DNA of 64,000 nt from contig CAVRET010000001.1 in the NCBI GenBank assembly GCA_963720265.1, positions 389,916 to 453,915 on the forward strand, read 5' to 3'. A model generated the notes under the pieces. It saw only the letters and a list, made by a program, of their open reading frames with translations, did no database searches and was not told the origin of the DNA. A program made the position numbers and the translations under genes. The DNA is from an uncultured bacterium (GTDB lineage Bacteria; Patescibacteriota; Saccharimonadia; UBA4664). Positions within the stretch are counted from its first letter, which is position 1, and every line of letters begins with the position of its first letter. This document shows positions 5,216 to 40,112 of this stretch, piece after piece.

Positions 5216-5601
5216 TAGTTGGCCTCCTTTGCCGGTTCGTTGGTGGTTTTCTGAGTTACCGGGGTCGGCTTTTGATCAGTTACGATAACCGTAATATGGC
5301 TTGAGCGCTTTTTGATCGAGCTGGAACTGCCTTTGGCGCGGGGGCGGCCGCGTTTGAGCGTAGGCCCGGGACCAATTAGGACCTGTTCAATGACTAAATC
5401 CGAGACCTTGGCCTTCAGATTGTTTTCGGCGTTCGCAACCGCGGAGTTGAGAACTTTACCAACAGGAACCGCGGCCCGCTTGGGCGTATTGGCCAGCATG
5501 TCCTGCGCGTCGATCACCCGGCGGCCGCGAATGAGCGCTGCCACGAGGCCGGTCTTTCTGGCTGATGTGCCAACGAATTTCGCCGTAGCCTTAGTTCTCA
5601 T
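5215..5601 (-). CDS. rplV: 50S ribosomal protein L22 with C-terminal extension
   Basis: 128 aa; VGTSARKTGLVAALIRGRRV...; Ser/Thr/Lys-rich tail. Confidence 0.93.
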   Translation of the reverse strand: MRTKATAKFVGTSARKTGLVAALIRGRRVIDAQDMLANTPKRAAVPVGKVLNSAVANAENNLKAKVSDLVIEQVLIGPGPTLKRGRPRAKGSSSSIKKRSSHITVIVTDQKPTPVTQKTTNEPAKEAN

Positions 5602-5876
5602 TATTTTTGCCCCTTTGCGAGCTTGCCGCCATGGCCGCGGAATTTACGCGTGGGTGAGAATTCACCAAGCTTGTGGCCGACCATGTTTTCAGATACAAAT
5701 ACCGGAACGTGCAGGCGGCCGTTGTGGACGGCAATGGTGTGGCCCACCATTTCAGGTGCAATAGCGGAGCTACGCGCCCAGGTTTTGAGCACGGACTTAT
5801 CGCCGGCCGGCAGCGCGGTAATGTGCTTAAGTAGGCGCTCGTCGACGTACGGGCCTTTTTTGAGTGAGCGACTCAT
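5601..5876 (-). CDS. rpsS: 30S ribosomal protein S19
   Basis: 91 aa; [18 protein letters not shown]...HNGRLHVPV. Confidence 0.96.
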
Positions 5877-6728
5877 CTAGCGTCTCCTTCCTTTTCCGCG
5901 GCCGCGGATGATCATGGCATCAGTGGATTTGCGGCGACGGGTTTTGAGGCCGAGCGCCGGCTTGCCCCACGGGGTCTTTTGACCGTAACGATAAATGGCC
6001 GTGGGCTGAGCACCTTCACCACCGCCATGCGGGTGGTCTACCGGGTTCATGGCCTTACCGCGAACTTGCGGGCGCCAACCAAGGCGGCGGCGGCGGCCGG
6101 CTGAGCCGTATTTAATGTTTTGATGCTGTTCATTGCCAACTGTGCCAATGGTGGCCTGGCAATTCTCGTTAATCAGGCGGACTTCACCGGATGGCAGTCG
6201 CACCTGTACAAACCCGGCCTTGGGTGATTCTTTTGATACGAGAGAGGCCTTGGTGCCTGCGCTTCTTGCGATTTGGCCGCCGCGCCCAAGCACGAGCTCA
6301 ATATTATAGATCTGCGTGCCGGCCGGCATATCTTTGAGGGCAAGACGGTGGCCGGCGCGAATGGCGGCGTCTTCACCTGAAGCCAGCTGATCACCGACCT
6401 TCATACCTGATCCGGCTAGAATGTACGCCGGCTTGCCGGAATCTAAGCGAACGAGCGCGATGTTAGCCGAGCGGTTTGGGTCATACTCGATGGCCTCGAC
6501 TACGGCCGACGTAATATTCTTGAAGTCGAAGTCGACGAGGCGGTAGAAGCGCTTGACCGTGCCGCCGCGATGACGAATGGTGATTTTGCCCTGATTGTTG
6601 CGGCCGGCATTGGATTTCTTGGATACAATTAATGAACGTGTTGGCTTGCGCTTGGTAATCGCCGAAGTGTCGGCGGATGTCATACCGCGGCGACCGGGCG
6701 TGGTTGGTTTGTAGAGTTTTATTGCCAT
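5877..6728 (-). CDS. rplB: 50S ribosomal protein L2
   Basis: 283 aa; MAIKLYKPTTPGRR...; GGGEG motif. Confidence 0.96.
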   Translation of the reverse strand: MAIKLYKPTTPGRRGMTSADTSAITKRKPTRSLIVSKKSNAGRNNQGKITIRHRGGTVKRFYRLVDFDFKNITSAVVEAIEYDPNRSANIALVRLDSGKPAYILAGSGMKVGDQLASGEDAAIRAGHRLALKDMPAGTQIYNIELVLGRGGQIARSAGTKASLVSKESPKAGFVQVRLPSGEVRLINENCQATIGTVGNEQHQNIKYGSAGRRRRLGWRPQVRGKAMNPVDHPHGGGEGAQPTAIYRYGQKTPWGKPALGLKTRRRKSTDAMIIRGRGKGRRR

Positions 6729-7006
6729 TATTTTGCTACCTCAAACAGCGTGATTTTTTGGCCGCGCTTAACGGTAACGATGGCTTTCTTAACGTCCTTT
6801 TGGCGGCCATGGATCTGGCGAAAGCGCTTTAATTTGCCTTTTACCACCACTATGTTGACCGCTGTTACATTAACCTTGAAGGCTGATTCAACAGCGCGGG
6901 CGACTTCAATTTTGTTGGAAGAGATGGGAACTTCAAAAATGTAGGTTCCGCGTTCGGCCAGGGTGATGGCTTTTTCGCTAATTTTCGGGGTCAACATTAC
7001 GCTCAT
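6728..7006 (-). CDS. rplW: 50S ribosomal protein L23
   Basis: 92 aa; position between rplD and rplB; KISEKAI...FEV motif. Confidence 0.92.
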   Translation of the reverse strand: MSVMLTPKISEKAITLAERGTYIFEVPISSNKIEVARAVESAFKVNVTAVNIVVVKGKLKRFRQIHGRQKDVKKAIVTVKRGQKITLFEVAK

Positions 7007-7653
7007 GCCTTGCCTCCAGTGGACTCGCCGAGCCAGCCCATGACAATTTCGAGAGCCGGTTGCGTGAGTACCAGTTTGTCGGTGTTCATGATGTCGTAAA
7101 CGTTTAGGTACTTGGCTGTCACAACCTGCAGGCCCTGGAGGTTACGCGTGGCACGACCGAGCATGTCGGTACGAGCGCCCACGGCCAGCAGTACACTGCC
7201 TTCGAGTTTCATTTTGGTTAGTAATTCGACAGCTTGCTTAACCTTGCCGTCGGGACAGTTAAAATCTTCAATTACAACGATGTCGCCGGCAGCGGCGCGC
7301 AGGCTCAGCGCCTGGCGAATCGCCAACCGCTTGGCGCGAACCGGCATAGACAAGGTGGGGTTCTCGGCGCCGGTTGGTCCAAACACAACGCCGCCGCCGC
7401 GCCAGTGCGGTACCCGAATTGAGCCGACACGGGCACGGCCGGTGCCTTTTTGCCGCCACGGTTTTTTGCCGCCGCCTGCCACTTCACCACGCTTGAGCGT
7501 AGTGGGATGAGCCGTACGGCCGTTGGCCAAGTAAGTACGGTAGGCTTGCCCAACGAGTTCGTGATTTGGCTTGAGACCAAAAACAGCTTCATTAAGTTTA
7601 ACGGCAGCTTCGCGTCGGGTGCCAGTCTTGGAGTAGGAGACGGCGTTTGCCAC
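7003..7653 (-). CDS. rplD: 50S ribosomal protein L4
   Basis: 216 aa; KPWRQKGTGRARVGSIRVPHWRGGGVVFGP motif. Confidence 0.95.
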   Translation of the reverse strand: MANAVSYSKTGTRREAAVKLNEAVFGLKPNHELVGQAYRTYLANGRTAHPTTLKRGEVAGGGKKPWRQKGTGRARVGSIRVPHWRGGGVVFGPTGAENPTLSMPVRAKRLAIRQALSLRAAAGDIVVIEDFNCPDGKVKQAVELLTKMKLEGSVLLAVGARTDMLGRATRNLQGLQVVTAKYLNVYDIMNTDKLVLTQPALEIVMGWLGESTGGKA

Positions 7654-8264
7654 TATGCTGCCCTCACAATAACGAGCCCGCGCTTGGGGCCGGGAATGGC
7701 GCCGGAGATCGCGAGTACGTTTGATTTTTCGTCAATGGTAAATACTTTGAGTCCTTTTACGGTAACTCGATCGTGACCCATGTGGCCGGCCATGTGCATG
7801 CCCCTAAAGACGTGCTCGGGGTAGCCGGAGCCGATTGAACCCGGGCCGCGGTAGTTATGCGAGCCGTGGGTTTTGGGTCCGCGGGAGAAGTTGTGGCGCT
7901 TAATTGTGCCGGCGAAGCCCTTACCCTTGGACGTGCCGGTGACCTGAACGGCATCGCCGGTCTCAAACGTGCTTACGGTCAGCTTGTCGCCGACTTTGGG
8001 CGTATCTTCGGATACTTCAGTCATACGGATTTCACGTAGCATTTTAGCCTCGGTTCCGGCAGCCTTAAGGTGCCCGACCTGTGGTTTGGCTAGATTTTTA
8101 GCCTTGCCATAGCCGAGCTGAACGGCGGCATAGCCGTCGCGCTCAATGGTTTTGACCTGCGCAACAATGCACGGACCCGCCTGCACAAGCGTCACCCGTT
8201 GAGCGTTGCCGGCTTCGTCGAATAATTGTGTCATTCCAAGTTTTGTACCGAGCAGGGCCTTCAA
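7653..8264 (-). CDS. rplC: 50S ribosomal protein L3 (probable TTG start)
   Basis: 203 aa; KALLGTKLGMTQLFDE...FSRGPKTHGSHNYRGPGSIG. Confidence 0.95.
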   Translation of the reverse strand: MKALLGTKLGMTQLFDEAGNAQRVTLVQAGPCIVAQVKTIERDGYAAVQLGYGKAKNLAKPQVGHLKAAGTEAKMLREIRMTEVSEDTPKVGDKLTVSTFETGDAVQVTGTSKGKGFAGTIKRHNFSRGPKTHGSHNYRGPGSIGSGYPEHVFRGMHMAGHMGHDRVTVKGLKVFTIDEKSNVLAISGAIPGPKRGLVIVRAA

Positions 8265-8401
8265 GACAATAGTTACCTTAGGTTTACATAAATAATTTCT
8301 AGGCTGTGGTGGTATCCAATCAGACTAATATATCTGAGCTGGACCTGCCACTTCCTAGCGAGTGCCGCCGTGGACTGGGCCGGGCGGCGAGGTACCAGAT
8401 G

Positions 8402-8486
8402 AGTATAGGATATCTGAGGCGTAATTGTCAACCTTGTTTGCAGCTGGGTTATTAAGCTTGACAATTACGCTTATGTATGCTAATAT
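8402..8486. promoter_or_regulatory. Palindrome carrying back-to-back sigma70-like promoters: one for rplC (minus) and one for the small plus-strand gene
   Basis: Perfect 12-bp inverted repeat CGTAATTGTCAA (8420-8431) / TTGACAATTACG (8458-8469); each arm contains TTGACA. Plus strand: TTGACA 8458-8463, 17 nt, TAATAT 8481-8486. Minus strand: TTGACA (plus 8426-8431), 18 nt, TATACT (plus 8402-8407). Confidence 0.5.
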
Positions 8487-8515
8487 AATGTTTGTTTAAA
8501 CGAGAATGTACCAAC

Positions 8516-8695
8516 ATGCGTAGTTTTGCAGCTCGTCTTATCTGGTTACTCGCGATCGATGTGGCGCTGACCATTGGGTATACTTATACTCCGGCCAACT
8601 TCACGCTGCTGCGCGACGTACTGGACGGCGTGATCCTGATCACCATGGCTACTACTATGCTGATCACGTTTCGCCGCGTACTCGAAGACTATTAA
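8516..8695 (+). CDS. small hydrophobic protein (two predicted TM helices), hypothetical
   Basis: ORF 8492..8695; ATG at 8516 preferred; lies downstream of the plus-strand promoter; LIWLLAIDVALTIGY hydrophobic segments. Confidence 0.35.
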   Translation: MRSFAARLIWLLAIDVALTIGYTYTPANFTLLRDVLDGVILITMATTMLITFRRVLEDY

Positions 8696-8716
8696 ATAAA
8701 CAGATTTTACCTGTAT

Positions 8717-8749
8717 AAAAACTGCTTGGCTTCGGCCCGGCAGTTTTTA
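8717..8749. terminator. bidirectional rho-independent terminator between convergent genes
   Basis: aaaa ACTGCTTGGC ttcg GCCCGGCAGT ttttatt; imperfect 10-bp stem with A-tract upstream and T-tract downstream. Confidence 0.5.
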
Positions 8750-9022
8750 TTATGTCCAGAACGAGATGAAAAAGCCGGCAACGGCCAGGTTCAATAGGGC
8801 TGCCACAAGTAGAATGGCGTACTCAATTTTGCGGTCGATAACAAAGCGGTCGTGCATTGCCAACAAGACGCCGAGTAGTAGACCGATTGGCAGGACGACG
8901 ACGCCGTTTACCTTGATCCACAGTGTGCCAATGACGAAGTAGAGCAGGATTTTAAGAAAGTAAAAGTCGTCGCTTTCGCGCGGACTGGTCTTTTTCTTAT
9001 TTTTTACAGCTGCTTTTGCCAT
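8750..9022 (-). CDS. small membrane protein, hypothetical
   Basis: ORF 8750..9256; likely start MAKAAVKNKKK at 9022; two hydrophobic helices; the upstream part of the ORF looks like GC-rich read-through. Confidence 0.4.
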   Translation of the reverse strand: MAKAAVKNKKKTSPRESDDFYFLKILLYFVIGTLWIKVNGVVVLPIGLLLGVLLAMHDRFVIDRKIEYAILLVAALLNLAVAGFFISFWT

Positions 9023-9540
9023 GCGCTTATTAAAGCATAAGAAATATAACAGCGCCAGTAACTTTTGTCTGGTTGGGACCCGGCGGCCGCGAGGCAACCG
9101 GATCCCAACGCCCCCGACAGGGGAAGCGGCGGCCATTGTGGCCGGCTTCAGTGGTGTGACCGAGACTGGTAACGATGCTTGAATCGCCGTGTGTATCGGA
9201 CCAGAATTACGAGCGACGATGTCGTCATGGCCGCAGCAACACTGCAGACAATCCAAAACGGTGGATTGGGATAGTCGGTGCGGGTGCTACTGGCGACAGC
9301 CATGCTATTGCCGGCTTCACGCTGGGCTTGTAGCCGCTAGCTGCCTCTCGGCATGTTGCTACCGAATTCGTTGCCCATGGCCTTGTCAAGAGCCGTCAGA
9401 CCGAGCACTGTGACGACGACTCCCGCCACAACAACCCAGGTTACCCTGGACCTCAGTACGCGTTCCATCCGGAACTTCCCTTCACCTCGGGCGTCTCGTG
9501 TTACCGAGCGCCAACTGTGCGGACGTTATTACTATAACGC

Positions 9541-10815
9541 CTAGGCTTCTGGATCGACATAGTAGGTTTCGTCTTTCACCTCATCTGGCAAAAAGCCTTT
9601 GGGGTGTTTGAAATCGGCCTGCCAATGGTAGCCCTTGCCGTAGTCGAGCTCCTTCATAAGCTTGGTGGGGGCATTGCGCAAATGAAGCGGCACCTGAGCG
9701 GCTGGGTGCTCGCGGGCAGCGGCAGAAGCTCGGCCTATAGCATCGGTGGCGGCGCGGCTCTTGGGAGCCCCCGCGAGTGCGATGGTGGTGTGCGCGAGTG
9801 TGAGCCGGCCTTCGGGAAGGCCAATGCGTTCTATGGCCTGAAACGTGGCTACAGCCAGTGCAAGCATGGTGTTATCGGCGAGGCCGATGTCTTCGGAGGC
9901 AAAAATAACCATTCGCCTGGCAATAAATTTGGGATCCTCGCCGCCTTCGAGCATGCGGGCAAGGTAAAACAGAGCAGCGTCGATCTGGCTGCCGCGCATG
10001 GATTTGATATAGGCCGAGATAAGGTTGTAATGGTATTCACCGGTTTTATCATAGGCCGCGGCCGGAGTTTGCATGGCCTGCAGAATGTGCTCCTCGGTAA
10101 TGGCGGAGCTCGCGAGTGCGGCGGCGGCTTCGAGACCACCTAGCGCTACCCGGGCGTCGCCGGCCGACAAGCGGGCGAGACGATCACGAGCTGCCGGCTT
10201 GAGCGTTTTTCCAGGTAGTTCGACCATCGCGCGATCTAATATTTGTGCTAGCTGCTCGGGCATGAGGGCTTCGAGAACGACTACCCGGCTGCGCGATAAT
10301 AACGGCCCGATGACTTCAAACGACGGGTTCTCAGTGGTGGCACCGATGAGAGTGATTGTGCCGTTTTCCATGTGCGGCAAGAACGCATCTTGCTGGGCTT
10401 TGTTAAAGCGGTGGATTTCATCCACGAATAGCACGGTGTTTTGGCCCAGGCGGTGGCGCTCCTTGGCTTGGTCAATGACTTTTTTAACATCGGCTAGGCC
10501 ACTGGTGACGGCCGAGATTTCGGCAAAGGCGGCACCCGAACTAGCCGCAATAATGCGCGCCAGGGTGGTTTTGCCAGTGCCCGGAGGCCCCCATAATATG
10601 AGCGACACCGGTTGGCTGCGTTCAATCATGGTGCGCAAGAACTGGCCTTCGCCCACGATACTGGCCTGGCCGATAAAGTCGGCCAGTGTCTGAGGCCGCA
10701 CCCGGTCGGCTAGCGGACGTGTTTCAGATTGGTCGAACAGATTGGGCATATCATTATTATATGCCTGGTGTTCGGATTGACGAATATGCTCGAAAATGCT
10801 TCTATTGTTGCGCAC
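9541..10815 (-). CDS. rarA: replication-associated recombination protein A (AAA+ ATPase MgsA/RarA family)
   Basis: 424 aa; Walker A GPPGTGKTT, Walker B VLFVDEIHRFNK; MgsA C-terminal helical domains. Confidence 0.9.
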   Translation of the reverse strand: MRNNRSIFEHIRQSEHQAYNNDMPNLFDQSETRPLADRVRPQTLADFIGQASIVGEGQFLRTMIERSQPVSLILWGPPGTGKTTLARIIAASSGAAFAEISAVTSGLADVKKVIDQAKERHRLGQNTVLFVDEIHRFNKAQQDAFLPHMENGTITLIGATTENPSFEVIGPLLSRSRVVVLEALMPEQLAQILDRAMVELPGKTLKPAARDRLARLSAGDARVALGGLEAAAALASSAITEEHILQAMQTPAAAYDKTGEYHYNLISAYIKSMRGSQIDAALFYLARMLEGGEDPKFIARRMVIFASEDIGLADNTMLALAVATFQAIERIGLPEGRLTLAHTTIALAGAPKSRAATDAIGRASAAAREHPAAQVPLHLRNAPTKLMKELDYGKGYHWQADFKHPKGFLPDEVKDETYYVDPEA

Positions 10816-10838
10816 ACCTTCGAGAAAGGCGCTTGGCT

Positions 10839-11375
10839 ATGAACCAAGAAGGCAACCTGGGTAGCGTCCCGCAGATAGTAATGCCGGCGGACGTCACGCC
10901 CGATGTGATCCTGGCCCTGAATTTCATCGCAGCAGCAGTCGTGGATCCGCGCATCCGGCCGTCGTTTCAGGCGAACTGGTTGCTGCTGCTGGGCCAGACG
11001 GATGTCGCGATCAATGAGGGAGACCTGATCATTGCACTTCGGCTGATCATCGAGGCGGCAGGCGGCGAGTCGCCGAATGCAAACACGGTGTACAACTATT
11101 TCGATCGTCAGGTGAGTCTGGCCGGCTTTACCGGCTGCGGCAGAAATACCGGTCTGCTCGTGGCCCGCAGGCTGAAACTGATCGTCCCGGTCAGAGAAAC
11201 GCCCGGCACAGCGGCACTGGTGGTGTGTCACCGGGGCCCCACGGCCAGCTCATACTGGGGCCATGCCGTCCTCCCGGATGGACATGACTGGTACCGGGTG
11301 GTGCGATTGACATCCGATCCGGCCGGTTTTGTCGAGGAGATCAGCGCTTGCGAGGAGCGGCCATACAAGCTCTGA
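10839..11375 (+). CDS. hypothetical protein
   Basis: ORF 10686..11375 overlaps the rarA 3' end; ATG at 10839 preferred; no recognised domain. Confidence 0.45.
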   Translation: MNQEGNLGSVPQIVMPADVTPDVILALNFIAAAVVDPRIRPSFQANWLLLLGQTDVAINEGDLIIALRLIIEAAGGESPNANTVYNYFDRQVSLAGFTGCGRNTGLLVARRLKLIVPVRETPGTAALVVCHRGPTASSYWGHAVLPDGHDWYRVVRLTSDPAGFVEEISACEERPYKL

Positions 11376-11438
11376 ACCGTCGGAGCAAAAGCCCCGTGGC
11401 CGGTTGGCCACGGGGCGCAGTGCGTTTAAGGTCAGAGA

Positions 11439-11774
11439 TTATTGTTTTTCCAGCCGGACAGCCGTGCCGTAGGCGGCGACTTCACTCATGATTTGACCAA
11501 TTTCAGATGTATCAAAGCGCATGGCGAGTACGGCGTTGGCGCCTTTTTCAGCCGCTGCAGCGCGCAACCGCTCGATAGCGTCTTGGCGGGTTTTGCTGAG
11601 CAGCTTGGTGTAACCGCCCACTTCGCCGCCGAAGACGGTGCGGAAATTGGCGCCCATGTTTGAAAAGAGATTGCGCGAGCGCACCACCAGCCCAAATACC
11701 TCGCCGTAGGTTTCGACAATCTTGTAGCCGGGCACGTCATTGGTGGTTACGACCAGGAGTTCCGTGTTACTCAC
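11439..11774 (-). CDS. YbjQ/UPF0145 (DUF74) family protein
   Basis: 111 aa; GEVFGLVVRSRN...GGEVGGYTKLL...ANAVLAMRFDTSEIG...AYGTAV pattern typical of UPF0145. Confidence 0.8.
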   Translation of the reverse strand: MSNTELLVVTTNDVPGYKIVETYGEVFGLVVRSRNLFSNMGANFRTVFGGEVGGYTKLLSKTRQDAIERLRAAAAEKGANAVLAMRFDTSEIGQIMSEVAAYGTAVRLEKQ

Positions 11775-12373
11775 GGCTGTTGCACCTGCGGTGGCTGCGG
11801 GGCGGGATTGCGGCCGGACAGCGCAATCAGCCTGTCCTGATGCGCTGCGTCGTCAGCTACGCGCATGGCCGGCTTCATCATACCGGCGCCGCGCCAGTCG
11901 TCCGCCTGAGGCTCAAACCATTCGTACACAGCCTGGACTAATTCTGGATCAAGTTTTTCCGGTGCCTTAATCGCCCGCGCTAGATCCCAGGCGTGAATAG
12001 TGAGGTCGATAAGCTGATGCTGCAAGTAGGTGCGGGCCGGGATGTCGCCGTAGCTGACGTGTACGATACCGTCGAGAGCGGTGAGACCGGAGGCGGCAGC
12101 TAGCGCCTTGCCTGCGGCATCGGCCCAAGCTGCTCCTGGGTGCTGGCCCAAGATGTCGCCGTCGTATTTCGTGCCGACCTGTTCAATTGTTTTGCCGGCC
12201 AGCAAATCTGGTACCCACAGAATTTCGTATGTCATGTGTTGAACTAGGTCGTACACCGACCAGTCGTCGTTGGGCGTTGGCAAATTCCACTGGACCACCT
12301 GGACTTCGTTTACGTAGCGGCCGAATTCGCCCAACGCTCGGCCCAGCATGATGATTTCTTGTTCCTGATCCAT
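11771..12373 (-). CDS. DinB-like / maleylpyruvate-isomerase N-terminal domain family (TIGR03083/TIGR03086-like) protein
   Basis: 200 aa; 4-bp overlap with the downstream ybjQ-like gene; DinB_2 / MDMPI_N-like helical-bundle motifs. Call made by recognition of the family, not by search. Confidence 0.55.
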   Translation of the reverse strand: MDQEQEIIMLGRALGEFGRYVNEVQVVQWNLPTPNDDWSVYDLVQHMTYEILWVPDLLAGKTIEQVGTKYDGDILGQHPGAAWADAAGKALAAASGLTALDGIVHVSYGDIPARTYLQHQLIDLTIHAWDLARAIKAPEKLDPELVQAVYEWFEPQADDWRGAGMMKPAMRVADDAAHQDRLIALSGRNPAPQPPQVQQP

Positions 12374-12487
12374 AGTGAGCCTCCCGGCGTTACCAACTCA
12401 TTGTCTCACCTCATCTTAGGCAACGCTACCAAAGGCTTCGCCATTTCCATGCCGTATAATGTCCACACGTAATGAAGGGCCAACACT

Positions 12488-12829
12488 ATGAAGTTTCTGA
12501 TTCTTTACCGGTCTCCGAAAAGCGCCGAGACGATTATGCGTGAATCAAGTATGGATCAAATGCAGGCGAGTATGCAGGCGTGGATGGAATGGAAAAACCG
12601 TAATGGGGATGCGGTCGTGGACTTCGGCTCACCGCTGAGGCCGGACAACTACATTGTTGACGGTGAGATTAAAGATAGTGACAGTGACGTGACTGGATTT
12701 ACTATTATTCAGGCTGATACAGCTGATGAGGCGGTGGAGATTCTCAAGGATCATCCGCATTTTAAGACGCCAAACTCCCCGGGTATGGAGCTGTTGGAAT
12801 TCTTGCCAATGCCGGGAATGGAAGCCTAA
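12488..12829 (+). CDS. YciI-like / Dabb-fold small protein
   Basis: 113 aa starting MKFLILYRSP; ferredoxin-like fold pattern; TATAAT box about 30 nt upstream. Confidence 0.5.
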   Translation: MKFLILYRSPKSAETIMRESSMDQMQASMQAWMEWKNRNGDAVVDFGSPLRPDNYIVDGEIKDSDSDVTGFTIIQADTADEAVEILKDHPHFKTPNSPGMELLEFLPMPGMEA

Positions 12830-12869
12830 GACAGGTTTGATAATTGCTTGGGCGGGTGCCCGAGCCCCG

Positions 12870-13295
12870 TCAGTTCGTGGGGCCCGGGCGCATCTGTGTG
12901 AGTAGAGCTCTAAGTAGTTCGCGCTGGCCTTCTTTGTGCGCGAATTGGTATGGCTGCTCGTTTCGCGCTGCCCTCGGGCTGCCGTTCACTGCTATCCAGA
13001 CTTCCCAGAGGCCGCTTTTCGGGCCGATTGGCACTACGCACCGTATTTGGAGCTTTGGCCCCGTTGGGTTGTTCAGTAGCGCTATTCCGAGTGAGCTCCC
13101 AGGCGGCCCGCTTGAGGAAAGCCCGTACCATTGACGACCGTCGATTTCGAAATCCGCGCAGTCATCTTCCCGGTAGCCGTGTTGCTGCAGCATTTCGCAG
13201 AAGTGCAGCGCGGTGAGGCGTTGGATCGGCGGCACGCCAGTTGCATTTACGCGAGTGAGTAGCCGCCTAACAACGCTGTTGATATCCGTGGTCAT
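12870..13295 (-). CDS. hypothetical small protein, paralog set member 1
   Basis: 141 aa; shares the segment ...DFEIDGRQWYGLSSSGP... with the 13448..13864 product (PFEIDGYKYFGVGPG). Confidence 0.5.
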   Translation of the reverse strand: MTTDINSVVRRLLTRVNATGVPPIQRLTALHFCEMLQQHGYREDDCADFEIDGRQWYGLSSSGPPGSSLGIALLNNPTGPKLQIRCVVPIGPKSGLWEVWIAVNGSPRAARNEQPYQFAHKEGQRELLRALLTQMRPGPTN

Positions 13296-13447
13296 GTCAG
13301 TCCTCTCGTGTATCGATACTTGATTGAGTCGTCCACAGATGGTATAATTATATTATAATTACTAAAGATTTGCAATAACATGCGACGGCCGCCCAGGTTA
13401 GCCCGGACGGCCGTTAATCGCGCAGAAATGTGGCGAGGCTTGACCCG

Positions 13448-13864
13448 TTAGGTAAGCAACCCGGCCAGGGGTACTGCGAACACATGTTCGTAGTCATCGT
13501 GGAGCTCGTAGAAGCCGGCTTCGATCCCGTCGCGTGTCACAGCGATCACGCTGATGTCGCTGCGGGCGACCCACGACCCCGCTTCCCGGTCACCTGCCAC
13601 CTCGGCGTGCCACTCGAGTTGGTCGTTTGCGCCGCAGGTGAGGCCGACCCAGCCTCGCTGAAGCCGCCCGGGTCCGACGCCGAAGTACTTGTAGCCGTCG
13701 ATCTCGAAGGGCTGGAGCCAGTCAAACGGCACATCGTGTGCCAGGAGCGCCTGCAGGAGCCCGCCGGCAAATATCCAGTCGGTGGGCGTTAGCTCACGCC
13801 CGAGCGCTTCGCACACGCTCTGCCTGAGCGCCTGCCCTTCTTCGGAAGTCATCCGTGCGTCCAT
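13448..13864 (-). CDS. hypothetical small protein, paralog set member 2
   Basis: ORF 13448..13942; start MDARMTSEE preferred; FEIDG motif shared with the upstream neighbour. Confidence 0.5.
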   Translation of the reverse strand: MDARMTSEEGQALRQSVCEALGRELTPTDWIFAGGLLQALLAHDVPFDWLQPFEIDGYKYFGVGPGRLQRGWVGLTCGANDQLEWHAEVAGDREAGSWVARSDISVIAVTRDGIEAGFYELHDDYEHVFAVPLAGLLT

Positions 13865-13896
13865 TCTCACCTTCCCTGGTCTTGGATACTTCACAT

Positions 13897-14310
13897 TTAT
13901 GAGTCGCCGGGCATGTCGTTGGCCGCCTGGATGAGCCGGCATACGAGGTTTTCTGGTTCGCCGGTCGCTTGTGTGTCCAGCTCGCCGTTGCAGTGGAACT
14001 CGATGCCGCCCCCTTCGCCCACGCGTACGTCCCAGTCCTCACCGCGCTGCGATATGCGGATCTTGATGACCGGTACTCGATCTTTGCCTGTTCCTTCCAG
14101 CACGAGGAGAACATAGCCCTCGCCGCTGCTGTCAGGGACTTCACTCGGATCGTGCAGGTCGACGGTTGTCTGACTCAGCAATGCCTCGAGCTCCCCGATA
14201 ACGTCGAGGCCACGCACGTAGTAGGTGACGAGATCGATCTCCGTCGGGCTCCACTCTCTACCGATGGCGAACATCCCCAGCAGCTGTTCGATTGCGGGTT
14301 GCGCGTCCAC
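13897..14310 (-). CDS. hypothetical small protein
   Basis: 137-aa ORF in tandem with two similar-size genes; no recognised domain. Confidence 0.45.
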   Translation of the reverse strand: MDAQPAIEQLLGMFAIGREWSPTEIDLVTYYVRGLDVIGELEALLSQTTVDLHDPSEVPDSSGEGYVLLVLEGTGKDRVPVIKIRISQRGEDWDVRVGEGGGIEFHCNGELDTQATGEPENLVCRLIQAANDMPGDS

Positions 14311-14440
14311 TTCAACCTTCTTCCCTTGGTGTCGGCTAAAACCGATCTACTTTATACCATTTGGCAGCGTTTTGCGCAATTAGTGCGACCCCGACTACCC
14401 AACCGACTTCGTCGAGGACGAGGGTCTGAATGGTAACGCG

Positions 14441-14719
14441 GTGGTTCGTGGATGGTTGGTTTATTTGTCCTCTGAAGGAAGTTTATACCCCTGGGATTTA
14501 AAGATTGCGTCAAAGCCAAAGATTAGCTGCGACGAGTATTTATCTGCGATCTGCATTACTAAGGCGTCTACAAACGACACCGAGGCCTTCAACGAATTTA
14601 GTCTGACCGCGGCAGCTCGCAAAATTGTGGAGTTAGAGCTTTCAATTGGGAATTTTGAGTCTAGTAACCCTCCCAGAGACCCCTGGGCCTTTAGGCCAGG
14701 GATGAATGGGTCCGCTTAA
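14441..14719 (+). CDS. hypothetical protein (low-GC ORF abutting the IS200 left end)
   Basis: 92-aa ORF; GC clearly lower than surroundings; no homology recognised. Confidence 0.25.
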   Translation: MVRGWLVYLSSEGSLYPWDLKIASKPKISCDEYLSAICITKASTNDTEAFNEFSLTAAARKIVELELSIGNFESSNPPRDPWAFRPGMNGSA

Positions 14720-15250
14720 GGCGGTAGCGCCAAGGCAAAACCGGGTGACGTCCAACCTTGGCGCTGGCGCCGACAGTCTGGCATGCTGGGTATGTGAAGT
14801 CAGGTAAAAAATATTATTCCGGTGCGCATACGCTATATCGCCTGCAATTTCATATCGTCTGGATACCCAAGTACCGCAAAAGCATCCTGCGGGGCGAAGT
14901 CGCCACTGACCTGAAGCGATTATTCTTTCAGTGCGCAGAGATGAACGACTGGTGGATTGAGCGGCTGGCAGTGATGCCCGACCACATTCATATGCTTATT
15001 GAACTACCTCCCAGCATCTCGGTGTCACAGGTAGTACAAATATTCAAAGGTGGCTCAAGTCGGGCTATCCGCCAGACGCATCCTGAACTGGAAGAATGGT
15101 TATGGGGAGATAGCTTCTGGGCGGATGGCTACTTCGCCGAGAGTGTTGGTCGTAACACGGAGCAGGCGATTAAACGGTATATCGAAAATCAATGGAAAGC
15201 TAAACCCAGCATGCCGCCCCAAGGAAGCCTCGGGCTTTAGCCCGAGGTGG
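14712..15250 (+). mobile_element. IS200/IS605-family element (tnpA only) with subterminal hairpins
   Basis: Y1 transposase gene flanked by hairpins: GCGCCAAGG (14727-14735) / CCTTGGCGC (14756-14764), and CCTCGGGC (15228-15235) / GCCCGAGG (15240-15247). Exact ends not determinable from sequence alone. Confidence 0.6.
14758..15240 (+). CDS. tnpA: IS200/IS605 family transposase TnpA (HUH Y1 transposase)
   Basis: LYRLQFHIVWIPKYRKSIL...PDHIHMLIELPP...FKGGSSR...GDSFWADGYFAESVGRNTEQAIKRYIENQ; HxH and catalytic Tyr motifs; the start could instead be the GTG at 14794. Confidence 0.85.
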   Translation: MALAPTVWHAGYVKSGKKYYSGAHTLYRLQFHIVWIPKYRKSILRGEVATDLKRLFFQCAEMNDWWIERLAVMPDHIHMLIELPPSISVSQVVQIFKGGSSRAIRQTHPELEEWLWGDSFWADGYFAESVGRNTEQAIKRYIENQWKAKPSMPPQGSLGL

Positions 15251-15349
15251 TTCACGATCTTGCCCTCTGCCAGGGCCTTAGTGTGAGTACTATCATCGTT
15301 CTTAACGATCGCGATTAGTCCGCTCGAGTCCGCAATGGCATAGCGCATT

Positions 15350-15607
15350 TCATTCCGACTCGCCATACAAATACTTATCGGCGTTCGTGGAGAGATCTTT
15401 TGGCCCACCGCTGATCCCAAGATCGGCCAGCCCGGCAATAGAGCCTTGTTTTTCGCTTTTCGCCGTAAATTCATTCTCGGAAATGAAAACCAACCTAGTG
15501 AACGGTGGCGCTTGTTGCGTCCTATCCCTTGTAATCTCGATGTCAGTTGGTCCTATTTTGCTTCCACCAGTGACCAAATAATTAGATTGGATGACTAACT
15601 TCTCCAT
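15350..15607 (-). CDS. hypothetical protein
   Basis: 85-aa ORF directly downstream of the DUF3467 gene on the same strand. Confidence 0.3.
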   Translation of the reverse strand: MEKLVIQSNYLVTGGSKIGPTDIEITRDRTQQAPPFTRLVFISENEFTAKSEKQGSIAGLADLGISGGPKDLSTNADKYLYGESE

Positions 15608-15882
15608 TAGTCTGGGTCCAATTCATCTGCAGTCGTAACTGCCTGCGTAAGTGCCTCTAAAAATAGCCGCGCGTGCTTGCGCGTCAAAATGACACGACTA
15701 ACGAGTGTCCCTTCGGGCTTGTCGCTTTCATTCGCGAACACGAAATTAAGCACCAATTCCCCCTTTGTGACATTGATGTTGGCAATGTTTGCATATACGC
15801 CGGACCGGAGTTCGTTAGGTACAAGTACTTCTACATCCTTTGGCTGCTTTTCTTCCATGTCACTATTGTACCAGAAGATCAA
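15607..15882 (-). CDS. DUF3467 family protein
   Basis: 91 aa; [25 protein letters not shown]...[16 protein letters not shown] matches the DUF3467 pattern; lies 38 bp downstream of rpsJ. Confidence 0.6.
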
Positions 15883-15920
15883 AAAACCGCCCTTGCGGGC
15901 GGCTTATTAGCGCGCGGGAA

Positions 15921-16250
15921 TTACATCTTAATTTCGATGTCGACGCCGGCGGGGAGGGAGAGGTTCATGAGGGCGTCGATGGTCTTGGGCGAGGGCTCGG
16001 TGATGTCGATGAGCCGCTTGTGGGTGCGCATTTCGAACTGCTCGCGGGCATCCTTGTAGATGTGCGGGCTGCGCAGGACGGTGGTGACGTTGCGCTCGGT
16101 GGGCAGCGGAATAGGGCCCGCAACATGAGCGCCGGTGCGGGTGGCAGTATCAATTATTTGCTTGGCGGATTGATCAATGACTTTCGAATCGTAGGCCTTA
16201 AGGCGGATTCGGATGCGTTGCTTGTTTTCGGTCTCGGTAGTTGCTGCCAT
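15921..16250 (-). CDS. rpsJ: 30S ribosomal protein S10
   Basis: 109 aa; IRIRLKAYD...LDQSAKQII...GPIPLPT. Confidence 0.96.
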
Positions 16251-16312
16251 AGACAGGTGCGTTAGGGTGGTTACCTAAAAACTCCACTTAGTTACTCTTA
16301 GTGCTGGATTTG

Positions 16313-16342
16313 ATTTAAGCATGAGAACCTGGGGTTTGTCAA
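16313..16342 (-). promoter_or_regulatory. candidate sigma70-like promoter for rpsJ
   Basis: On the minus strand: TTGACA (plus 16337-16342), 18 nt, TTAAAT (plus 16313-16318), about 60 nt upstream of the rpsJ ATG. Confidence 0.4.
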
Positions 16343-16436
16343 TCTGACGGTATGAATAAGAGCTTTTTCGGGCGCACCCGGGACCCCGCGCCGTCTGATG
16401 GCGAGGTCCCGGGGCGGTGGTTGCCGAGGTACTGGA

Positions 16437-17372
16437 TCATGTGGTCAAGGCCGGCATGGACCCCAACATGTATGCCAGCAGCCAGTGGCGTTCCGGCTGG
16501 TCGGCGACTCCCCGCGCCACCTTAAACACGAAGGCTGTTGGTGGCACCTCGAGATTTTGCCGACCCACCTTAAGGAGCGGAATCAAGGCGGGCGTAGGCT
16601 GCCTACCCGTGATGAGCAGCGCCGTATACGAAATGCCGTCGACGACCATCGTGCTGTGCGCCTTGAGAAGCGAGTTGGGTAGCCGCATCCAAGGTCTGAG
16701 GTTGTGCGCATACGGCGGAGTCCCCGGCATGCACAGGCCGACGAGGCCGGTTTGGCCTAGTACCTTTGGGGCGGCTTCTACGAGGGCTTGGGGCGACCAG
16801 GCGTGCATGGCGACATCGGGGCGTCCGGGGAACGAGGCGAGCCGGATGCCGCCGACCTCGTGATCGTTTAGGGGTGTTTCGCGCGCTGCCATGGCAAACG
16901 GCAGCAGGTTGAGCGCGGCATGCCTAAATTCCAGCGCGAGAGCGCCGCCCATTTCTGGGTCGTTGAGGGTGGTGTCGTCGGTTGTGACCACGTACGTCAG
17001 CTCGTTTGGCGGCCATGACGGGTTGAGACCGATGAGCGCAGCTCCGAGCCCGAGGTGGAACGTGACGAGTCCGGGGCCCGTGACAACCGCGGTACTGAGC
17101 CGGTCGACTTGCACTTGGACGGCTGAGAATTGCTGTTGATGCCGGTAGGCGTCGGCTATGCTTCCGGCCTGGGCGAAGTCTTCGGTTATCCAGACGGTGG
17201 CCAGTCGCTGGTAGCGGCTGAGTGCCTCTATCTTGCCGCCCATCGCGGCGGCGTAAGCGTTGAGCCACGTCCAGGGCCAGACATGAAACGTGACCGACCT
17301 ATCTCCTACGACTTGGTCAAGCGCGATGGGACCGCCGGGCGGTCCGGTGTCGGGCGCCGCGCGTTGCGACAT
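16437..17372 (-). CDS. hypothetical protein (very high GC, about 65%)
   Basis: 311-aa ORF; no recognised domain; divergent from the proteasome-like gene. Confidence 0.5.
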   Translation of the reverse strand: MSQRAAPDTGPPGGPIALDQVVGDRSVTFHVWPWTWLNAYAAAMGGKIEALSRYQRLATVWITEDFAQAGSIADAYRHQQQFSAVQVQVDRLSTAVVTGPGLVTFHLGLGAALIGLNPSWPPNELTYVVTTDDTTLNDPEMGGALALEFRHAALNLLPFAMAARETPLNDHEVGGIRLASFPGRPDVAMHAWSPQALVEAAPKVLGQTGLVGLCMPGTPPYAHNLRPWMRLPNSLLKAHSTMVVDGISYTALLITGRQPTPALIPLLKVGRQNLEVPPTAFVFKVARGVADQPERHWLLAYMLGSMPALTT

Positions 17373-17432
17373 GACACTTCCCTTCGTAGAACCTCAGTGG
17401 ACAGTATCAGATTAAAGCGGGCTTTTTGGTAT

Positions 17433-18191
17433 ATGTCAATCGATATGGCTGGCGATTGTACCATGACGTCAAGTGATAATGTTGATATAATACTTGCGCC
17501 TAAAGGACGACTCGATACAATGACACTGGCAACAAACATCAAACAGTGTCACGGCGTAACTGTTGCCTCCGATGGTTTGGCAAAAAGGATCAGCGATGAG
17601 ACCGGCGAATTATCATATCTTGATACGCACCCCAAAGCTTTCATCGTCTCAGAGCGCATAATGCTCAGCCGAACCATGGTTTATATGCGCGAGGAGCGAG
17701 CTGATAACATAAATGCGTTCTTGCAGGGCTATTGCGAGGGCAATCCGATGGCTTCAGTTGAAGACGTGGCAAGAAAGGCCGCCCGTGTTACAAAACGCCT
17801 TGTGGATGAGACGAAAGCCGCAGGCGACCGCCAGGCATCAATGCAGCTTCTGATAGCAGGAGTGGGCGTAGATGGCGAAGTTGAAATATACCATATTGAT
17901 GACGAGGCAAACGGCTACAAGGTAACTCTGGTCGAGGGGAACTTCTGCAGCATAGGTAACAACAAACAAGCTGATGATTTTCTCGACCAACGAATAAGGG
18001 ACGTTAGACTGACACCGAAATCGGCTCTTAGGATAATCCAAAGAGCAATGAAAGAATCTGTAACAAAGCAAAGGCTGGACGGCTACCCACAAACTATCGG
18101 CGGCCAAATATTCGCCTGGCATATCAGCAAGTCCGGCATTACCGAAGTACCAACAACGGAGCTGGACGTAATTCCTATCCAATCCGATTAG
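17433..18191 (+). CDS. proteasome beta-subunit-like Ntn-hydrolase (HslV/Anbu-like)
   Basis: About 252 aa from ATG 17433. TLATNIKQCHGVTVASDG resembles the proteasome N-terminal T..GVVLAADT; LLIAGVGVDGEVEIYHIDDEANGY...FCSIGNNKQADDFL resembles the LIAGxD..GPxLYxIDPSG...AIGSG core. GC is about 47%, against about 60% for the backbone. Confidence 0.55.
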   Translation: MSIDMAGDCTMTSSDNVDIILAPKGRLDTMTLATNIKQCHGVTVASDGLAKRISDETGELSYLDTHPKAFIVSERIMLSRTMVYMREERADNINAFLQGYCEGNPMASVEDVARKAARVTKRLVDETKAAGDRQASMQLLIAGVGVDGEVEIYHIDDEANGYKVTLVEGNFCSIGNNKQADDFLDQRIRDVRLTPKSALRIIQRAMKESVTKQRLDGYPQTIGGQIFAWHISKSGITEVPTTELDVIPIQSD

Positions 18192-18224
18192 CCATAGCTC
18201 CAAAACGCTCATTTCTGCGCTATA

Positions 18225-18788
18225 ATGCCTCTACCAAGGAGATACTTCGTGGAGAGCCCGCAGCCTAAAGAGAAAAACTGGTTTCAGCGCCATCCGGTAT
18301 GGACTGTCGTTTTGGCACTCCTGGCCGTATTTATGATCGTGGGAGCTGCCAGTAACAACTCGCAAAGTACCAACACGGCCTCGTCGTCAACTCCAACACC
18401 AACCCCGGCCCCGGCTGTAAGTTCGACGACCCAACAGGTAGATGCTTGGTTTACCAAGTACGGTGAACCAGTAAGTAGCATTCTTGCCACTGATCTGGGC
18501 AAGCTACGGTCGGATGCCAACAACGAAAACATGGCTGCTTCGTCCAATGACTGCCAGCAAGTTGAGACTGAAGTCACAATCGCCCAGTCGGACCCGGCAA
18601 TTCCAGATAGTTCCATGGAGAAGAACTGGAGCACGGGTCTGGCCTCATGGGAGTCGGGTGCCCAAGATTGTGTATCGGGCGTAGCCGGTATGGATACTGG
18701 CCTAATTACGCAAGGCGGAAGCGAAATGCAGCAGGGCACCACGGCTATAGAGGCCGTGGCGGCGGAAATAAAGCAGCTTAATCAGTAA
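18225..18788 (+). CDS. membrane-anchored secreted protein, hypothetical
   Basis: 187 aa; N-terminal TM helix VWTVVLALLAVFMIVGAA, then a Ser/Thr/Pro linker and a soluble domain. Confidence 0.5.
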   Translation: MPLPRRYFVESPQPKEKNWFQRHPVWTVVLALLAVFMIVGAASNNSQSTNTASSSTPTPTPAPAVSSTTQQVDAWFTKYGEPVSSILATDLGKLRSDANNENMAASSNDCQQVETEVTIAQSDPAIPDSSMEKNWSTGLASWESGAQDCVSGVAGMDTGLITQGGSEMQQGTTAIEAVAAEIKQLNQ

Positions 18789-18792
18789 TGCC

Positions 18793-19770
18793 TGGTATTA
18801 TCACTGTAGAATCAAGGAGCCTTGCAATGAATGACGATAAAGACGCGCCAATCGACGAACGCCGCTTTCGGACGACGCTTGACCGCGCTATTCTAGCGTC
18901 CGATCAACCACAGCGTAAAACAGAGGACGGACATCGTGACGATGAGAGTAGCGAAACGCGAACTCATCAACGTAATGCTGTAGATGCTGTGGACTCACAT
19001 GATGGTACGTCCCCGACAGAGAGCGCTTCAACTGACCCCAAAAACCCTCAATAGTATTTGTGGTGACATTGCCACGCGCATACTCGCGGGCAGCGTGGTT
19101 AACTGATTGATGCAGTCTGAGCCGCGAGACATGGTCGTAAATTCGTGAGGTATCGGTATGAAGCTCGGCTTCGGCCGCTACGTTGGCGTTAATGAAATTG
19201 CGAGCGTTACTGACGCTGGCCGTGTTTACGGCGTTAGCTTTCACGGAACCGCCGCGCTCGACCAAGCCGAGCACCGGAGTCTTAGAGTTAAAACGCTCGT
19301 CAAACTTGTGCTTGCCGCCGATGTAGGTTTCATCAGCCTCGACAATTCCGGATAACACGCCGCCCTCGTCGGTCATTACCTTGCGGATTTGGCGGGCAAT
19401 TCTCCACGCGCACTTATATGTCATTCCGAAGTGCCGTTGCAGCTCCAGGGCCGCTACACCGTTCTTAGCGTTGGTCATGAGCAAGATGCAGTAAAACCAT
19501 GTCCGAAGCGGTGTCTCGGACTTGTGAAAGATAGTTCCAGCAGTTGGGGAAACTTGCTTGCCGCAAACTGAGCAGGCATAGCATTTGCGAGCACGAACGC
19601 GATAGAAGCCGTTAACCTTACCACACTTCGGGCAAGGCTTATCCGCAAACTTCAATTTGAACATATACTCTAAGCAAGCATTGTCGTCGGGGAACTCGCG
19701 TTCAAAATCTCGAATAGTCATACTTTAATACTAATCCAGATATTACTTGATGTCAAGGTATAATTACCAT
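18793..19770 (-). mobile_element. IS1595-family (ISXO2-like) insertion sequence, approximate bounds
   Basis: Transposase ORF plus imperfect terminal inverted repeats GGTATTATCACTGTAGAATCAAGG (left) and CTTGACATCAAG...GGTAATTATACC (right, reverse complement). Ends are approximate. Inserted immediately 3' of the ATP-grasp gene stop. Confidence 0.55.
18888..19721 (-). CDS. IS1595 family transposase (ISXO2-like; N-terminal zinc ribbon + DDE domain)
   Basis: 277 aa; MTIRDFEREFPDDNACLEYMFKLKF..CPKCG...CSVCGK zinc ribbon; ...ETYIGGK...HTDTSRIYD...NTIEGFWGQLKR typical of IS1595. Confidence 0.88.
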   Translation of the reverse strand: MTIRDFEREFPDDNACLEYMFKLKFADKPCPKCGKVNGFYRVRARKCYACSVCGKQVSPTAGTIFHKSETPLRTWFYCILLMTNAKNGVAALELQRHFGMTYKCAWRIARQIRKVMTDEGGVLSGIVEADETYIGGKHKFDERFNSKTPVLGLVERGGSVKANAVNTASVSNARNFINANVAAEAELHTDTSRIYDHVSRLRLHQSVNHAAREYARGNVTTNTIEGFWGQLKRSLSGTYHHVSPQHLQHYVDEFAFRYSHRHDVRPLFYAVVDRTLE

Positions 19771-22071: not shown

Positions 22072-23257
<1,186 letters not shown>

Positions 23258-23950: not shown

Positions 23951-26043
<2,093 letters not shown>

Positions 26044-26832: not shown

Positions 26833-26927
26833 CCGGCTGCGCCCGACCGCTTCGGTTCAACTTGTCTCGCTGCTGCTACGCAAGCCTCGTGCCAGTAGGG
26901 GTGGCGAGGCTTCGTAGTTTAGGGGTG

Positions 26928-28328: not shown

Positions 28329-28332
28329 GCGT

Positions 28333-30006: not shown

Positions 30007-30079
30007 GATGTTCTCATATTACATGACGACGCCCCGGGCGGCTCACCCACATGTTCGGGTGGCCGCCGGGACGCAAACG

Positions 30080-30847: not shown

Positions 30848-30921
30848 GGGATCGTTGGAACAGGATAGAACACTGACGTTCGGTCAGCTACTGTACGTCA
30901 AAATGTTTGAATTAGCAATGC

Positions 30922-32316: not shown

Positions 32317-36249
<3,933 letters not shown>

Positions 36250-36254
36250 TGGGA

Positions 36255-40072: not shown

Positions 40073-40112
40073 CGGGGCCGCCAAGTCCGGTGAACCGGAC
40101 TTGGCGGCCCCG
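40073..40112. terminator. strong GC-rich hairpin (18-bp stem, tgaa loop) between the upstream gene and rpoB; candidate terminator/attenuator
   Basis: CGGGGCCGCCAAGTCCGG tgaa CCGGACTTGGCGGCCCCG; there is no flanking U-tract, so its function is uncertain. Confidence 0.4.

Follow-up and report, generated by a model that had tools for sequence, protein, structure and literature searches.

The S10 operon is split between rpsJ and rplC in the sampled Saccharimonadia, with a conserved promoter and a putative regulatory leader before rplC

In the classical S10 operon, rpsJ (ribosomal protein uS10) lies immediately upstream of rplC (uL3) in one transcription unit. A different organisation was found in a 64,000-nucleotide stretch of DNA, hereafter the window, from an uncultured bacterium of the Saccharimonadia (Patescibacteriota; GenBank assembly GCA_963720265.1, contig CAVRET010000001.1, positions 389,916 to 453,915), where a gap of 7,656 bp, a predicted terminator and a predicted promoter separate the two genes. 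Judged by the gene order of related genomes, this split is old, inherited and common to all the sampled Saccharimonadia relatives. The cluster led by rplC is preceded by a conserved promoter and by a leader RNA with a conserved three-tier hairpin, which is most likely, by analogy with known systems, an autoregulatory ribosomal-protein leader (r-leader).

The rpsJ-rplC split across relatives

The rplC gene (7653-8264, minus strand; open reading frame (ORF) with Pfam PF00297) starts with TTG in the window and with ATG at the same position in the relatives. It heads the rplC-rplD-rplW-rplB cluster, whose next ORFs are located at 7003-7653, 6728-7006, 5877-6728 and onward. The gene calls of an independent Logan contig, L161, agree with this order, and this contig encodes an L3 protein identical to that of the window. 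The rpsJ gene (15921-16250, minus strand; PF00338, E 2.5e-37) is a solitary gene and is also present on Logan contig L163. An earlier note on this DNA had placed the two genes 7.6 kb apart and listed several genes between them; the distance was confirmed and the listed genes are present according to Pfam.

The relatives were examined by placing rpsJ and rplC with tblastn in 160 fetched loci, 142 of which contained both genes. The gap between them ranges from 767 to 6057 bp in the Saccharimonadia-like loci (11/11), and it is 288 bp or less in the other 131 loci (median 77.5). Closer relatives were found through RarA, an ATPase encoded within the gap, whose named homologues belong to Candidatus Saccharimonadia. 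Two of them, L165 (81% RarA identity) and L167 (77%), have gaps of 7.6 and 3.6 kb, respectively, and in L164 (85%) the sequence continues for at least 8.5 kb beyond rpsJ until the contig ends. Hence, the gap measures 0.8-7.6 kb in all 13 Saccharimonadia-like loci with both genes, and the idea that the split is peculiar to this organism was not supported by the synteny comparison, which shows it to be lineage-wide. In agreement with the placement of the window in the Saccharimonadia, the best L3 matches (one genome per species) share 57-69% identity and all come from metagenome-assembled genomes of Saccharimonadia or Patescibacteria, and a metagenome scan with L3 added six further Saccharimonadia loci, none closer than 70%.

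As far as the literature search shows, an rpsJ-rplC split with a variable islet in every Saccharimonadia locus sampled appears to be new. The literature search returned no account of such a split or of an rplC leader in Saccharibacteria, an absence that is no proof of novelty.

The rplC promoter and the palindrome

Two divergent promoters are predicted upstream of rplC, and they are the two best promoter-like sites in the region 7600-17600. The rplC promoter (8402-8431, minus strand) reads TTGACA-N18-TATACT, with 11/12 consensus matches and a predicted transcription start site (TSS) at ~8395. The other one (8458-8486, plus strand) reads TTGACA-N17-TGcTAATAT, with an extended -10 box, 10/12 matches and a predicted TSS at ~8493, and it faces a small gene encoding a membrane protein.

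The motif TTGAC(A/T)-N17/18-TA(T/C)A(G/C)T is found 105-190 nt upstream of the rplC start in 22/22 related loci, counting L081, whose contig ends inside the promoter and retains the -10 box only. Its TTGAC and TAnAnT parts are invariant over 14 aligned loci and present in the eight further ones. Since all 22 relatives have it, the rplC promoter is therefore inherited, an ancestral and conserved sequence element rather than a newly acquired one.

The small gene (8516-8695, plus strand, antisense to the rplC cluster) encodes 59 aa from an ATG; it had been listed with 67 aa from the TTG at 8492, and the gene call on L161 also gives 59 aa. Homologues occupy the same antisense position in L002 and L005 (38-39% identity), and 61-aa genes do so in L164 and L165. 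Its promoter, TTGAC(A/T)-N17-TGcTA(A/T)TAT, is complete in L164 and L165, and the -35 box TTGACAAAACGCA of L002 and L005 matches it. The distance to the rplC promoter varies: the two -35 boxes stand back to back, 26-27 nt apart, in L164 and the window, the promoters are ~155 nt apart in L165, and another ORF lies between them in L002 and L005. The pair has the features of divergent sigma70-type promoters, with spacers of 17/18 nt on opposite strands and each predicted promoter conserved before its own gene.

In the window, the two -35 boxes are part of a palindrome (8419-8431/8458-8470, both strands) with perfect 13-nt arms and a 26-nt spacer, each arm consisting of the -35 hexamer plus 7 nt; alternatively, it can be scored as 17 nt at 94%. 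The earlier description of a palindrome with back-to-back promoters is thus real, with arms of 13 and not 12 nt, but its corollary that rplC acquired its promoter inside the palindrome does not stand, given the promoter in the 22 relatives. Alignment to other rplC upstream regions showed that the perfect arms occur in the window only, and the closest relative, L164, shares just TTGACAA. The palindrome is therefore read as an inherited rplC promoter juxtaposed with an inherited small-gene promoter, and the six additional matching bases may be due to chance (~1 in 4096) or to local gene conversion.

A different reading would take the palindrome as the operator of a dimeric DNA-binding regulator controlling both rplC and the divergent small gene. 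The perfect 13-nt arms are far beyond chance in random sequence (three loci with inverted repeats of this quality in the window versus ~0.03 expected per randomised window), and each arm overlaps a -35 box, which would suit such an operator. Nevertheless, a conserved operator is disfavoured because the arms beyond TTGACAA are not conserved in L164, and in L165 the two promoters stand ~155 nt apart. Moreover, promoter function explains the hexamers, leaving only the six extra bases to account for, and no regulator gene is evident nearby. This reading is considered very unlikely.

The only other perfect inverted repeats of at least 13 nt with a short spacer in the window are located at 40073-40112 and 46173-46207. 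The first one, immediately downstream of the 1185-aa gene with which the rpoB/rpoC pair ends, presumably acts as a terminator.

Upstream of the rplC promoter, between the convergent small gene and the next gene of the block, an imperfect hairpin with A- and T-runs was found (8715-8750, both strands; inverted repeat of 16 nt at 88%). The strict terminator scan did not list it; its sequence and position suggest that it is probably a bidirectional terminator, which would insulate rplC from upstream transcription.

The rplC leader RNA

The predicted rplC 5' leader comprises ~137 nt (8265-8401, minus strand) and contains a 5' hairpin (8364-8389), the three-tier hairpin (8299-8358), an A/U-rich box (8284-8295) and the Shine-Dalgarno sequence AAGG. 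Its minimum free energy (MFE) is -45.6 kcal/mol, with z = -3.29. In the sampled Saccharimonadia the leader measures 105-160 nt and carries a conserved three-tier hairpin. In the window, this hairpin is formed by a basal stem P1 (CUAGG/CCUAG), an AA/AG internal loop, the stem P2 (GUGG/CCAC), a GG/CC element and an apical stem whose 3' side bears a conserved A-rich bulge (GAUACC in the window). The conserved sequence signatures are GGAAG, AGGUC and GA(A/U)ACC, and the 3' end of the motif is ~20-35 nt before the start codon in most relatives.

Several lines of analysis recovered the same structure. Single-sequence MFE folds contained the three-tier hairpin in most of 20 leaders, and it was the only structure that RNAalifold predicted from nine full leaders aligned with plain MAFFT. 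Two models of the motif were built. R1 was seeded with seven sequences of one subgroup, because plain MAFFT shifted two sequence groups by one column, and R2 was made from eight relatives with the window excluded. The top match of R1, both in eight other related loci and over the full 64-kb window, was the site upstream of rplC; L013 and L082 gave no match. R2 found the window site (8294-8362, minus strand; 38.9 bits, E 1.8e-7) as the single significant match in the window and detected 7/8 further relatives (E 2e-13 to 4e-4). The two models cross-detect each other's sequences. In their alignments 95% of the cells are paired, versus 28-50% when the partners are slid, and changes on both sides affect 7 and 9 of the 14 pairs in the two model alignments. 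P1 illustrates these compensatory changes, with the versions CUAGG/CCUAG, CUGGG/CCCAG, CUGCA/UGCAG and CCAGG/CCUGG. A covarying, conserved secondary structure is thus present in the 5' untranslated region of an r-protein operon, between the predicted -10 box (8402-8407) and the start codon (8262-8264), as is characteristic of r-leaders.

No Rfam 15 family was found for the leader, either with the gathering score over the whole window, at E <= 10 over 8200-8520 or at E <= 1 in six relatives, and the literature search returned no r-protein leader reported for Patescibacteria (the Candidate Phyla Radiation, CPR). As far as Rfam 15 and the literature search show, the motif appears to be new.

Structured r-protein leaders have precedents. 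In E. coli, L4 controls the S10 operon, by attenuation and by translational repression, through a leader hairpin and a U-rich tract near the first ribosome-binding site (PMC3616713). The window resembles this system in having a hairpin and a U-rich tract close to the first ribosome-binding site, but its leader precedes rplC and not rpsJ, which belongs to another unit, and it has no Rfam match; moreover, the E. coli type of L4 leader does not extend beyond Gammaproteobacteria (PMC3616713). In Archaeoglobi, a candidate L4 r-leader, rated as uncertain ("?") by its authors, is located upstream of rplC, rplD, rplW and rplB (PMC7247131, Table 1). The likeness here is one of position, with a conserved RNA structure immediately before a cluster headed by rplC; that leader is archaeal, and no Rfam model matched in our case.

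The hairpin could also be another kind of cis element, such as an RNase III/RNase E processing or stabilising structure, a NusA/Rho pause site or a small-molecule aptamer. Conservation of structure and position would be expected for these elements too, a U-rich tract follows the hairpin, and the comparison of R1 with E. coli 23S rRNA offered no convincing rRNA mimicry. However, the conserved loop and bulge sequences (GGAAG, AGGUC, GAAACC) resemble a specific binding site and not a generic stem, and a small motif (~55 nt, single hairpin) before an r-protein operon is what known r-leaders look like (PMC7247131, PMC3616713). Furthermore, R1 and R2 gave the motif at no other place in the 64-kb window or the loci searched. 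Such an element is regarded as unlikely, and an r-leader remains the preferred interpretation of the hairpin.

Some points weigh against the overall proposal and should be kept in mind. The promoters, terminators and TSSs of the window and its relatives are sequence predictions, and only the Saccharimonadia loci in the sample set a bound on the age of the split. The covariation counts come from model-fitted alignments of only 8-9 related sequences, and L013, the most divergent relative, was detected by neither R1 nor R2. In the window the U-rich tract that follows the hairpin (AAAUUAUUUAUGU) is a weak one, and it was missed by the terminator scan. Finally, R1 gave only a weak partial match to E. 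coli 23S rRNA (rrlB) at about nt 998-1034 (L162 1639-1675; 7.4 bits, E 2.3), which is not significant.

Two further observations concern the leader. The resemblance to E. coli 23S rRNA at ~998-1034 involves the apical part of the motif, UAAGGUC...GAAAC. In addition, the box UUAUUUAUGUAA (8284-8295, minus strand), located between the hairpin and the Shine-Dalgarno sequence, is identical in the window, L164, L165, L001-L005 and L081, even though the L3 proteins of L001-L005 and L081 share only ~67-70% identity with that of the window. This box includes a minimal AUG-UAA start-stop.

The rpsJ unit

An intrinsic terminator is predicted directly 3' of rpsJ (15881-15905, minus strand), in which a hairpin with a 9-pair stem and a T-run occupies 15884-15905. 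A hairpin plus T-run is also located after rpsJ in six of the nine relatives checked (L002, L004, L006, L009, L010 and L086). The earlier suggestion that the genes from L3 onward are transcribed independently of rpsJ is very probable, because this terminator and the rplC promoter are both conserved in relatives.

The predicted rpsJ promoter (16313-16342, minus strand) reads GATTGACA (TTGACA)-N17-TGCTTAAAT, with an extended -10 box. It is conserved in three relatives with an rpsJ that is also separated from tuf, namely L002, L004 and L005. In the window ~5.8 kb lie between the end of tuf (22072) and the start of rpsJ (16250). Linkage of tuf and rpsJ with a separate rplC-led cluster is known from cyanobacteria, plastids, archaea and Thermotoga, so that the detachment of rpsJ from rplC has precedents as well. 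The more distant Saccharimonadia loci (L006, L008-L011, L085 and L086) resemble this arrangement, with rpsJ 15-45 bp after tuf and rplC heading its own cluster, and the cyanobacterial locus L052 has no rpsJ within 10 kb upstream of rplC. On the other hand, the window and its nearest relatives differ from it, since their rpsJ has left tuf too, and rpsJ and rplC are on the same strand, a few kb apart, with a variable islet between them.

In the stretch 15858-15873 (minus strand), the rpsJ terminator is immediately followed by an extended -10 sequence, TGGTACAAT, and the ATG of the DUF3467 gene comes 6 nt further on, which suggests a leaderless transcript for this gene. The rpsJ terminator of L086 and L009 also precedes a similar TGGTACAAT or TAGTATAAT.

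Conserved and variable content of the gap

Relatives share the half of the gap next to rplC. This half contains, all on the minus strand, a 90-aa protein of unknown function with two transmembrane segments (8750-9022; called with 90 aa on L161, so that the listed 168-aa ORF overextends), the RarA/MgsA AAA+ ATPase (9541-10815; PF12002, E 8.2e-55), YbjQ (11439-11774; Pfam) and an MDMPI/DinB-like gene (11771-12373; Pfam and TIGR03086) with a 4-nt overlap with ybjQ. After ybjQ, a terminator-like hairpin (11391-11416, minus strand) has 11 pairs, 10 of them G-C, followed by TTTTGCTCCG. MDMPI, YbjQ, RarA, the 90-aa protein and the antisense 59-aa gene are common to L164 and L165 (81-85% RarA identity). 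RarA is encoded in the rpsJ-rplC gap of L002, L004, L005, L008, L164, L165 and L167; in L007, too, it stands upstream of rplC, and at least eight lineages have it there. The 90-aa protein is found in more lineages, and most Saccharimonadia loci have a homologue immediately before the rplC promoter.

The next gene, YCII-like (12488-12829, plus strand), is a borderline call (PF03795, E 9.2e-5; 23.3 bits versus a cut-off of 24), and a homologue with 41% identity is located antisense, directly after rpsJ, in L002. From there on, the rpsJ-proximal ~3 kb (12870-15900) are the only genome-specific part. They include three ORFs of unknown function on the minus strand (12870-13295, 13448-13942 or -13864, and 13897-14310), all on L161, with no homologue in any fetched relative. 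These had been described as three tandem paralogs; the first two show a marginal similarity (22.7% over 97 aa, pairwise E 3e-4), but the third is like neither of them. An 85-aa ORF (15350-15607, minus strand) and the DUF3467 gene (15607-15858 or -15882, minus strand; PF11950, E 4.5e-12), preceded by TGGTACAAT at 15865-15873, are both called on L163. Searches of Pfam, NCBIfam and PADLOC were negative for the three orphan ORFs, for the membrane proteins of 90 and 59 aa, for the 85-aa ORF and for a 311-aa ORF located upstream of rpsJ.

The islet that follows the rpsJ terminator has a different content in each genome. In the window it carries DUF3467, the 85-aa ORF, a possible PIN gene cut by an insertion sequence of the IS200 type, the three orphan ORFs and the YCII-like gene. 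It comprises a YaaC protein plus three ORFs in L164, an Mrr-like nuclease plus one ORF in L165, YCII, a pyrimidine-dimer glycosylase, NUDIX and RNase H in L002, HicAB in L005, an FMN dehydrogenase plus DUF4870 in L009, and an ABC-F ATPase in L086.

These data bear on the possibility that the whole 7.6 kb is a recent accessory insertion into a normal S10 operon, after which the palindrome gave rplC a new promoter. The IS200 element and the orphan ORFs in the block, the rpsJ-proximal 3 kb without counterpart in relatives and the perfect 13-nt palindrome unique to this genome are consistent with it. Nevertheless, every relative sampled, down to 57% L3 identity, has the split as well as the rplC promoter and leader, and half of the block is syntenic with relatives, by which the idea is largely refuted. 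Moreover, the G+C content of the block (0.547-0.556) equals the window mean (0.552), and no tRNA or flanking repeats mark an island. We give a recent insertion very little credence. The notion of an accessory block therefore holds in part: as a whole, the block does not look like a genomic island, since half of it is shared, and absence from relatives applies to 12870-15900 only, the segment that bears the IS200 element.

The IS200 element and the assembly

The IS200/IS605-family element (14660-15256, approximate bounds, plus strand) encodes a Y1 (HUH) TnpA (14758-15240; PF01797, E 6.6e-41, full profile). It has subterminal imperfect hairpins at both ends, the left one at 14681-14701 (CCCTGGGCCTTTAGGCCAGGG, -13.9 kcal/mol in context) and the right one at 15228-15247 (CCTCGGGCTTTAGCCCGAGG, -19.8 kcal/mol), which share GGGC(C)TTTAG(G)CC. 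These are the features of the family, and the earlier claim of a complete IS200-type tnpA with both hairpins was correct. The exact-match look-up of TnpA returned no record. There is one copy in the window, and it makes up ~0.6 kb of the 7.6-kb gap; the IS200 element did not cause the rpsJ-rplC split.

Short-read Logan contigs of run ERR11523669 are 100% identical to the window over 4667-14689 (L161) and 15226-17480 (L163). Both stop at the IS200 ends (14689 and 15226), and no independent contig spans the element. Breaks at both ends, a further likeness to IS200/IS605 elements, suggest that it is repeated.

The flanks of the element, 14461-14622 and 15250-15474 (minus strand), are frame-compatible, with the N-terminal part MRYAIADSSGLIAIV... 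and the C-terminal part ...FVDALVMQIADKYSSQLIFGFD. The element was excised in silico at its approximate ends, and the resulting single ORF matched PIN weakly (E 0.024; 15.7 bits versus a cut-off of 23.6). IS200 may thus have interrupted a toxin gene (PIN) whose 85-aa upstream partner (15350-15607) is intact.

An assembly artefact, in which the rpsJ and rplC sides were misjoined through a repeated IS200 copy, would fit the fact that both short-read contigs end at the element and none crosses it, and the deposited contig has probable consensus errors in tuf and fusA. However, L164 and L165 have the same order and orientation (rpsJ ... MDMPI-YbjQ-RarA-membrane protein-small gene-rplC), L002 shows rpsJ-YCII ... 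RarA ... rplC, the IS200 flanks join into one frame with the weak PIN match, and L161 alone contains 6.4 kb of non-ribosomal genes upstream of rplC, without rpsJ. A mis-join, which the earlier note had raised against its own reading, is extremely improbable, and the gap is taken as a genuine feature of this genome.

The region upstream of rpsJ

Upstream of rpsJ, a second genome-specific insertion (16437-19721) contains the 311-aa orphan ORF, a 353-aa protein with a proteasome-subunit domain, a 187-aa ORF and an IS1595-family transposase (18888-19721). It parts rpsJ from an ATP-grasp ligase gene (19775-21094), which directly abuts rpsJ in L164 and L165.

Further upstream, tuf (22072-23257) has at least three frameshifts and fusA (23951-26043) at least four, and both are split over several frames. 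These frames are still 70-92% identical to relatives, and rpoB and rpoC (32317-39812) are intact. The short-read contig L169, from the same run, lacks the two indels that it covers and differs at 22 other positions. Hence, pseudogenes were rejected as an explanation, and the frameshifts are probably consensus errors in the deposited contig.

A NUDIX gene (23375-23917) is located between fusA and tuf. The str region is also interrupted between rpsG and fusA (26248-31350), by genes for a PCC-domain protein, a 255-aa ORF, an ABC-F ATPase, a Mur-ligase-family protein and a 194-aa ORF; an ABC ATPase is found upstream of fusA in L167 too.

Proposed model and significance

Regarding these data, the S10 operon of the sampled Saccharimonadia would be divided into two transcription units. 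The first one would end with rpsJ, which either remains with tuf or stands alone behind a promoter of its own, and most of the loci examined have a predicted terminator after this gene. The second one, rplC-rplD-rplW-rplB onward, would be transcribed from its own sigma70-type promoter through the leader with the three-tier hairpin. The space between both units would tolerate insertions, with long-resident genes near rplC and a fast-turnover islet after the rpsJ terminator. Near rplC, MDMPI, YbjQ and the antisense 59-aa gene appear to be residents at the subclade level, and RarA and the 90-aa protein residents in many lineages.

An r-protein encoded by the cluster and in excess over rRNA could bind the hairpin and lower expression. 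It might do so by occluding the ribosome-binding site, which is 20-35 nt downstream, or by enhancing termination at the U-rich tract. The foremost candidate is uL4, since in E. coli L4 regulates this gene cluster by way of a leader hairpin and a U-tract, and since a candidate L4 leader exists in Archaeoglobi; uL3 would be the alternative.

The architectural part of this model, that is, two units with a conserved promoter and a conserved structured leader, is highly likely from the comparison of loci. The feedback function of the hairpin, proposed by analogy, stands at about an even chance. The complete explanation, joining the two units, the inherited promoter and leader, the insertion-tolerant gap and the hairpin as a feedback operator, is considered likely. 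A more specific proposal falls a little short of even: the hairpin would be an undescribed, Saccharimonadia-specific r-leader for feedback by uL4 or uL3 on the rplC cluster of 20-plus genes, and the old split would have opened a permissive "landing pad", filled in different lineages with repair, toxin-antitoxin, restriction and insertion sequence genes.

The control of r-protein synthesis is known in detail only in a few model phyla, and a covarying rplC leader offers a handle on it in the ultrasmall bacteria of the CPR. Regulation by the leader is testable since Saccharibacteria can be transformed (PMC10633639). Moreover, a class-wide split bears on annotation, on operon prediction and on the use of syntenic r-protein blocks as phylogenetic markers, and the 7.6-kb gap with its palindrome should not be taken for a recent strain-level event.

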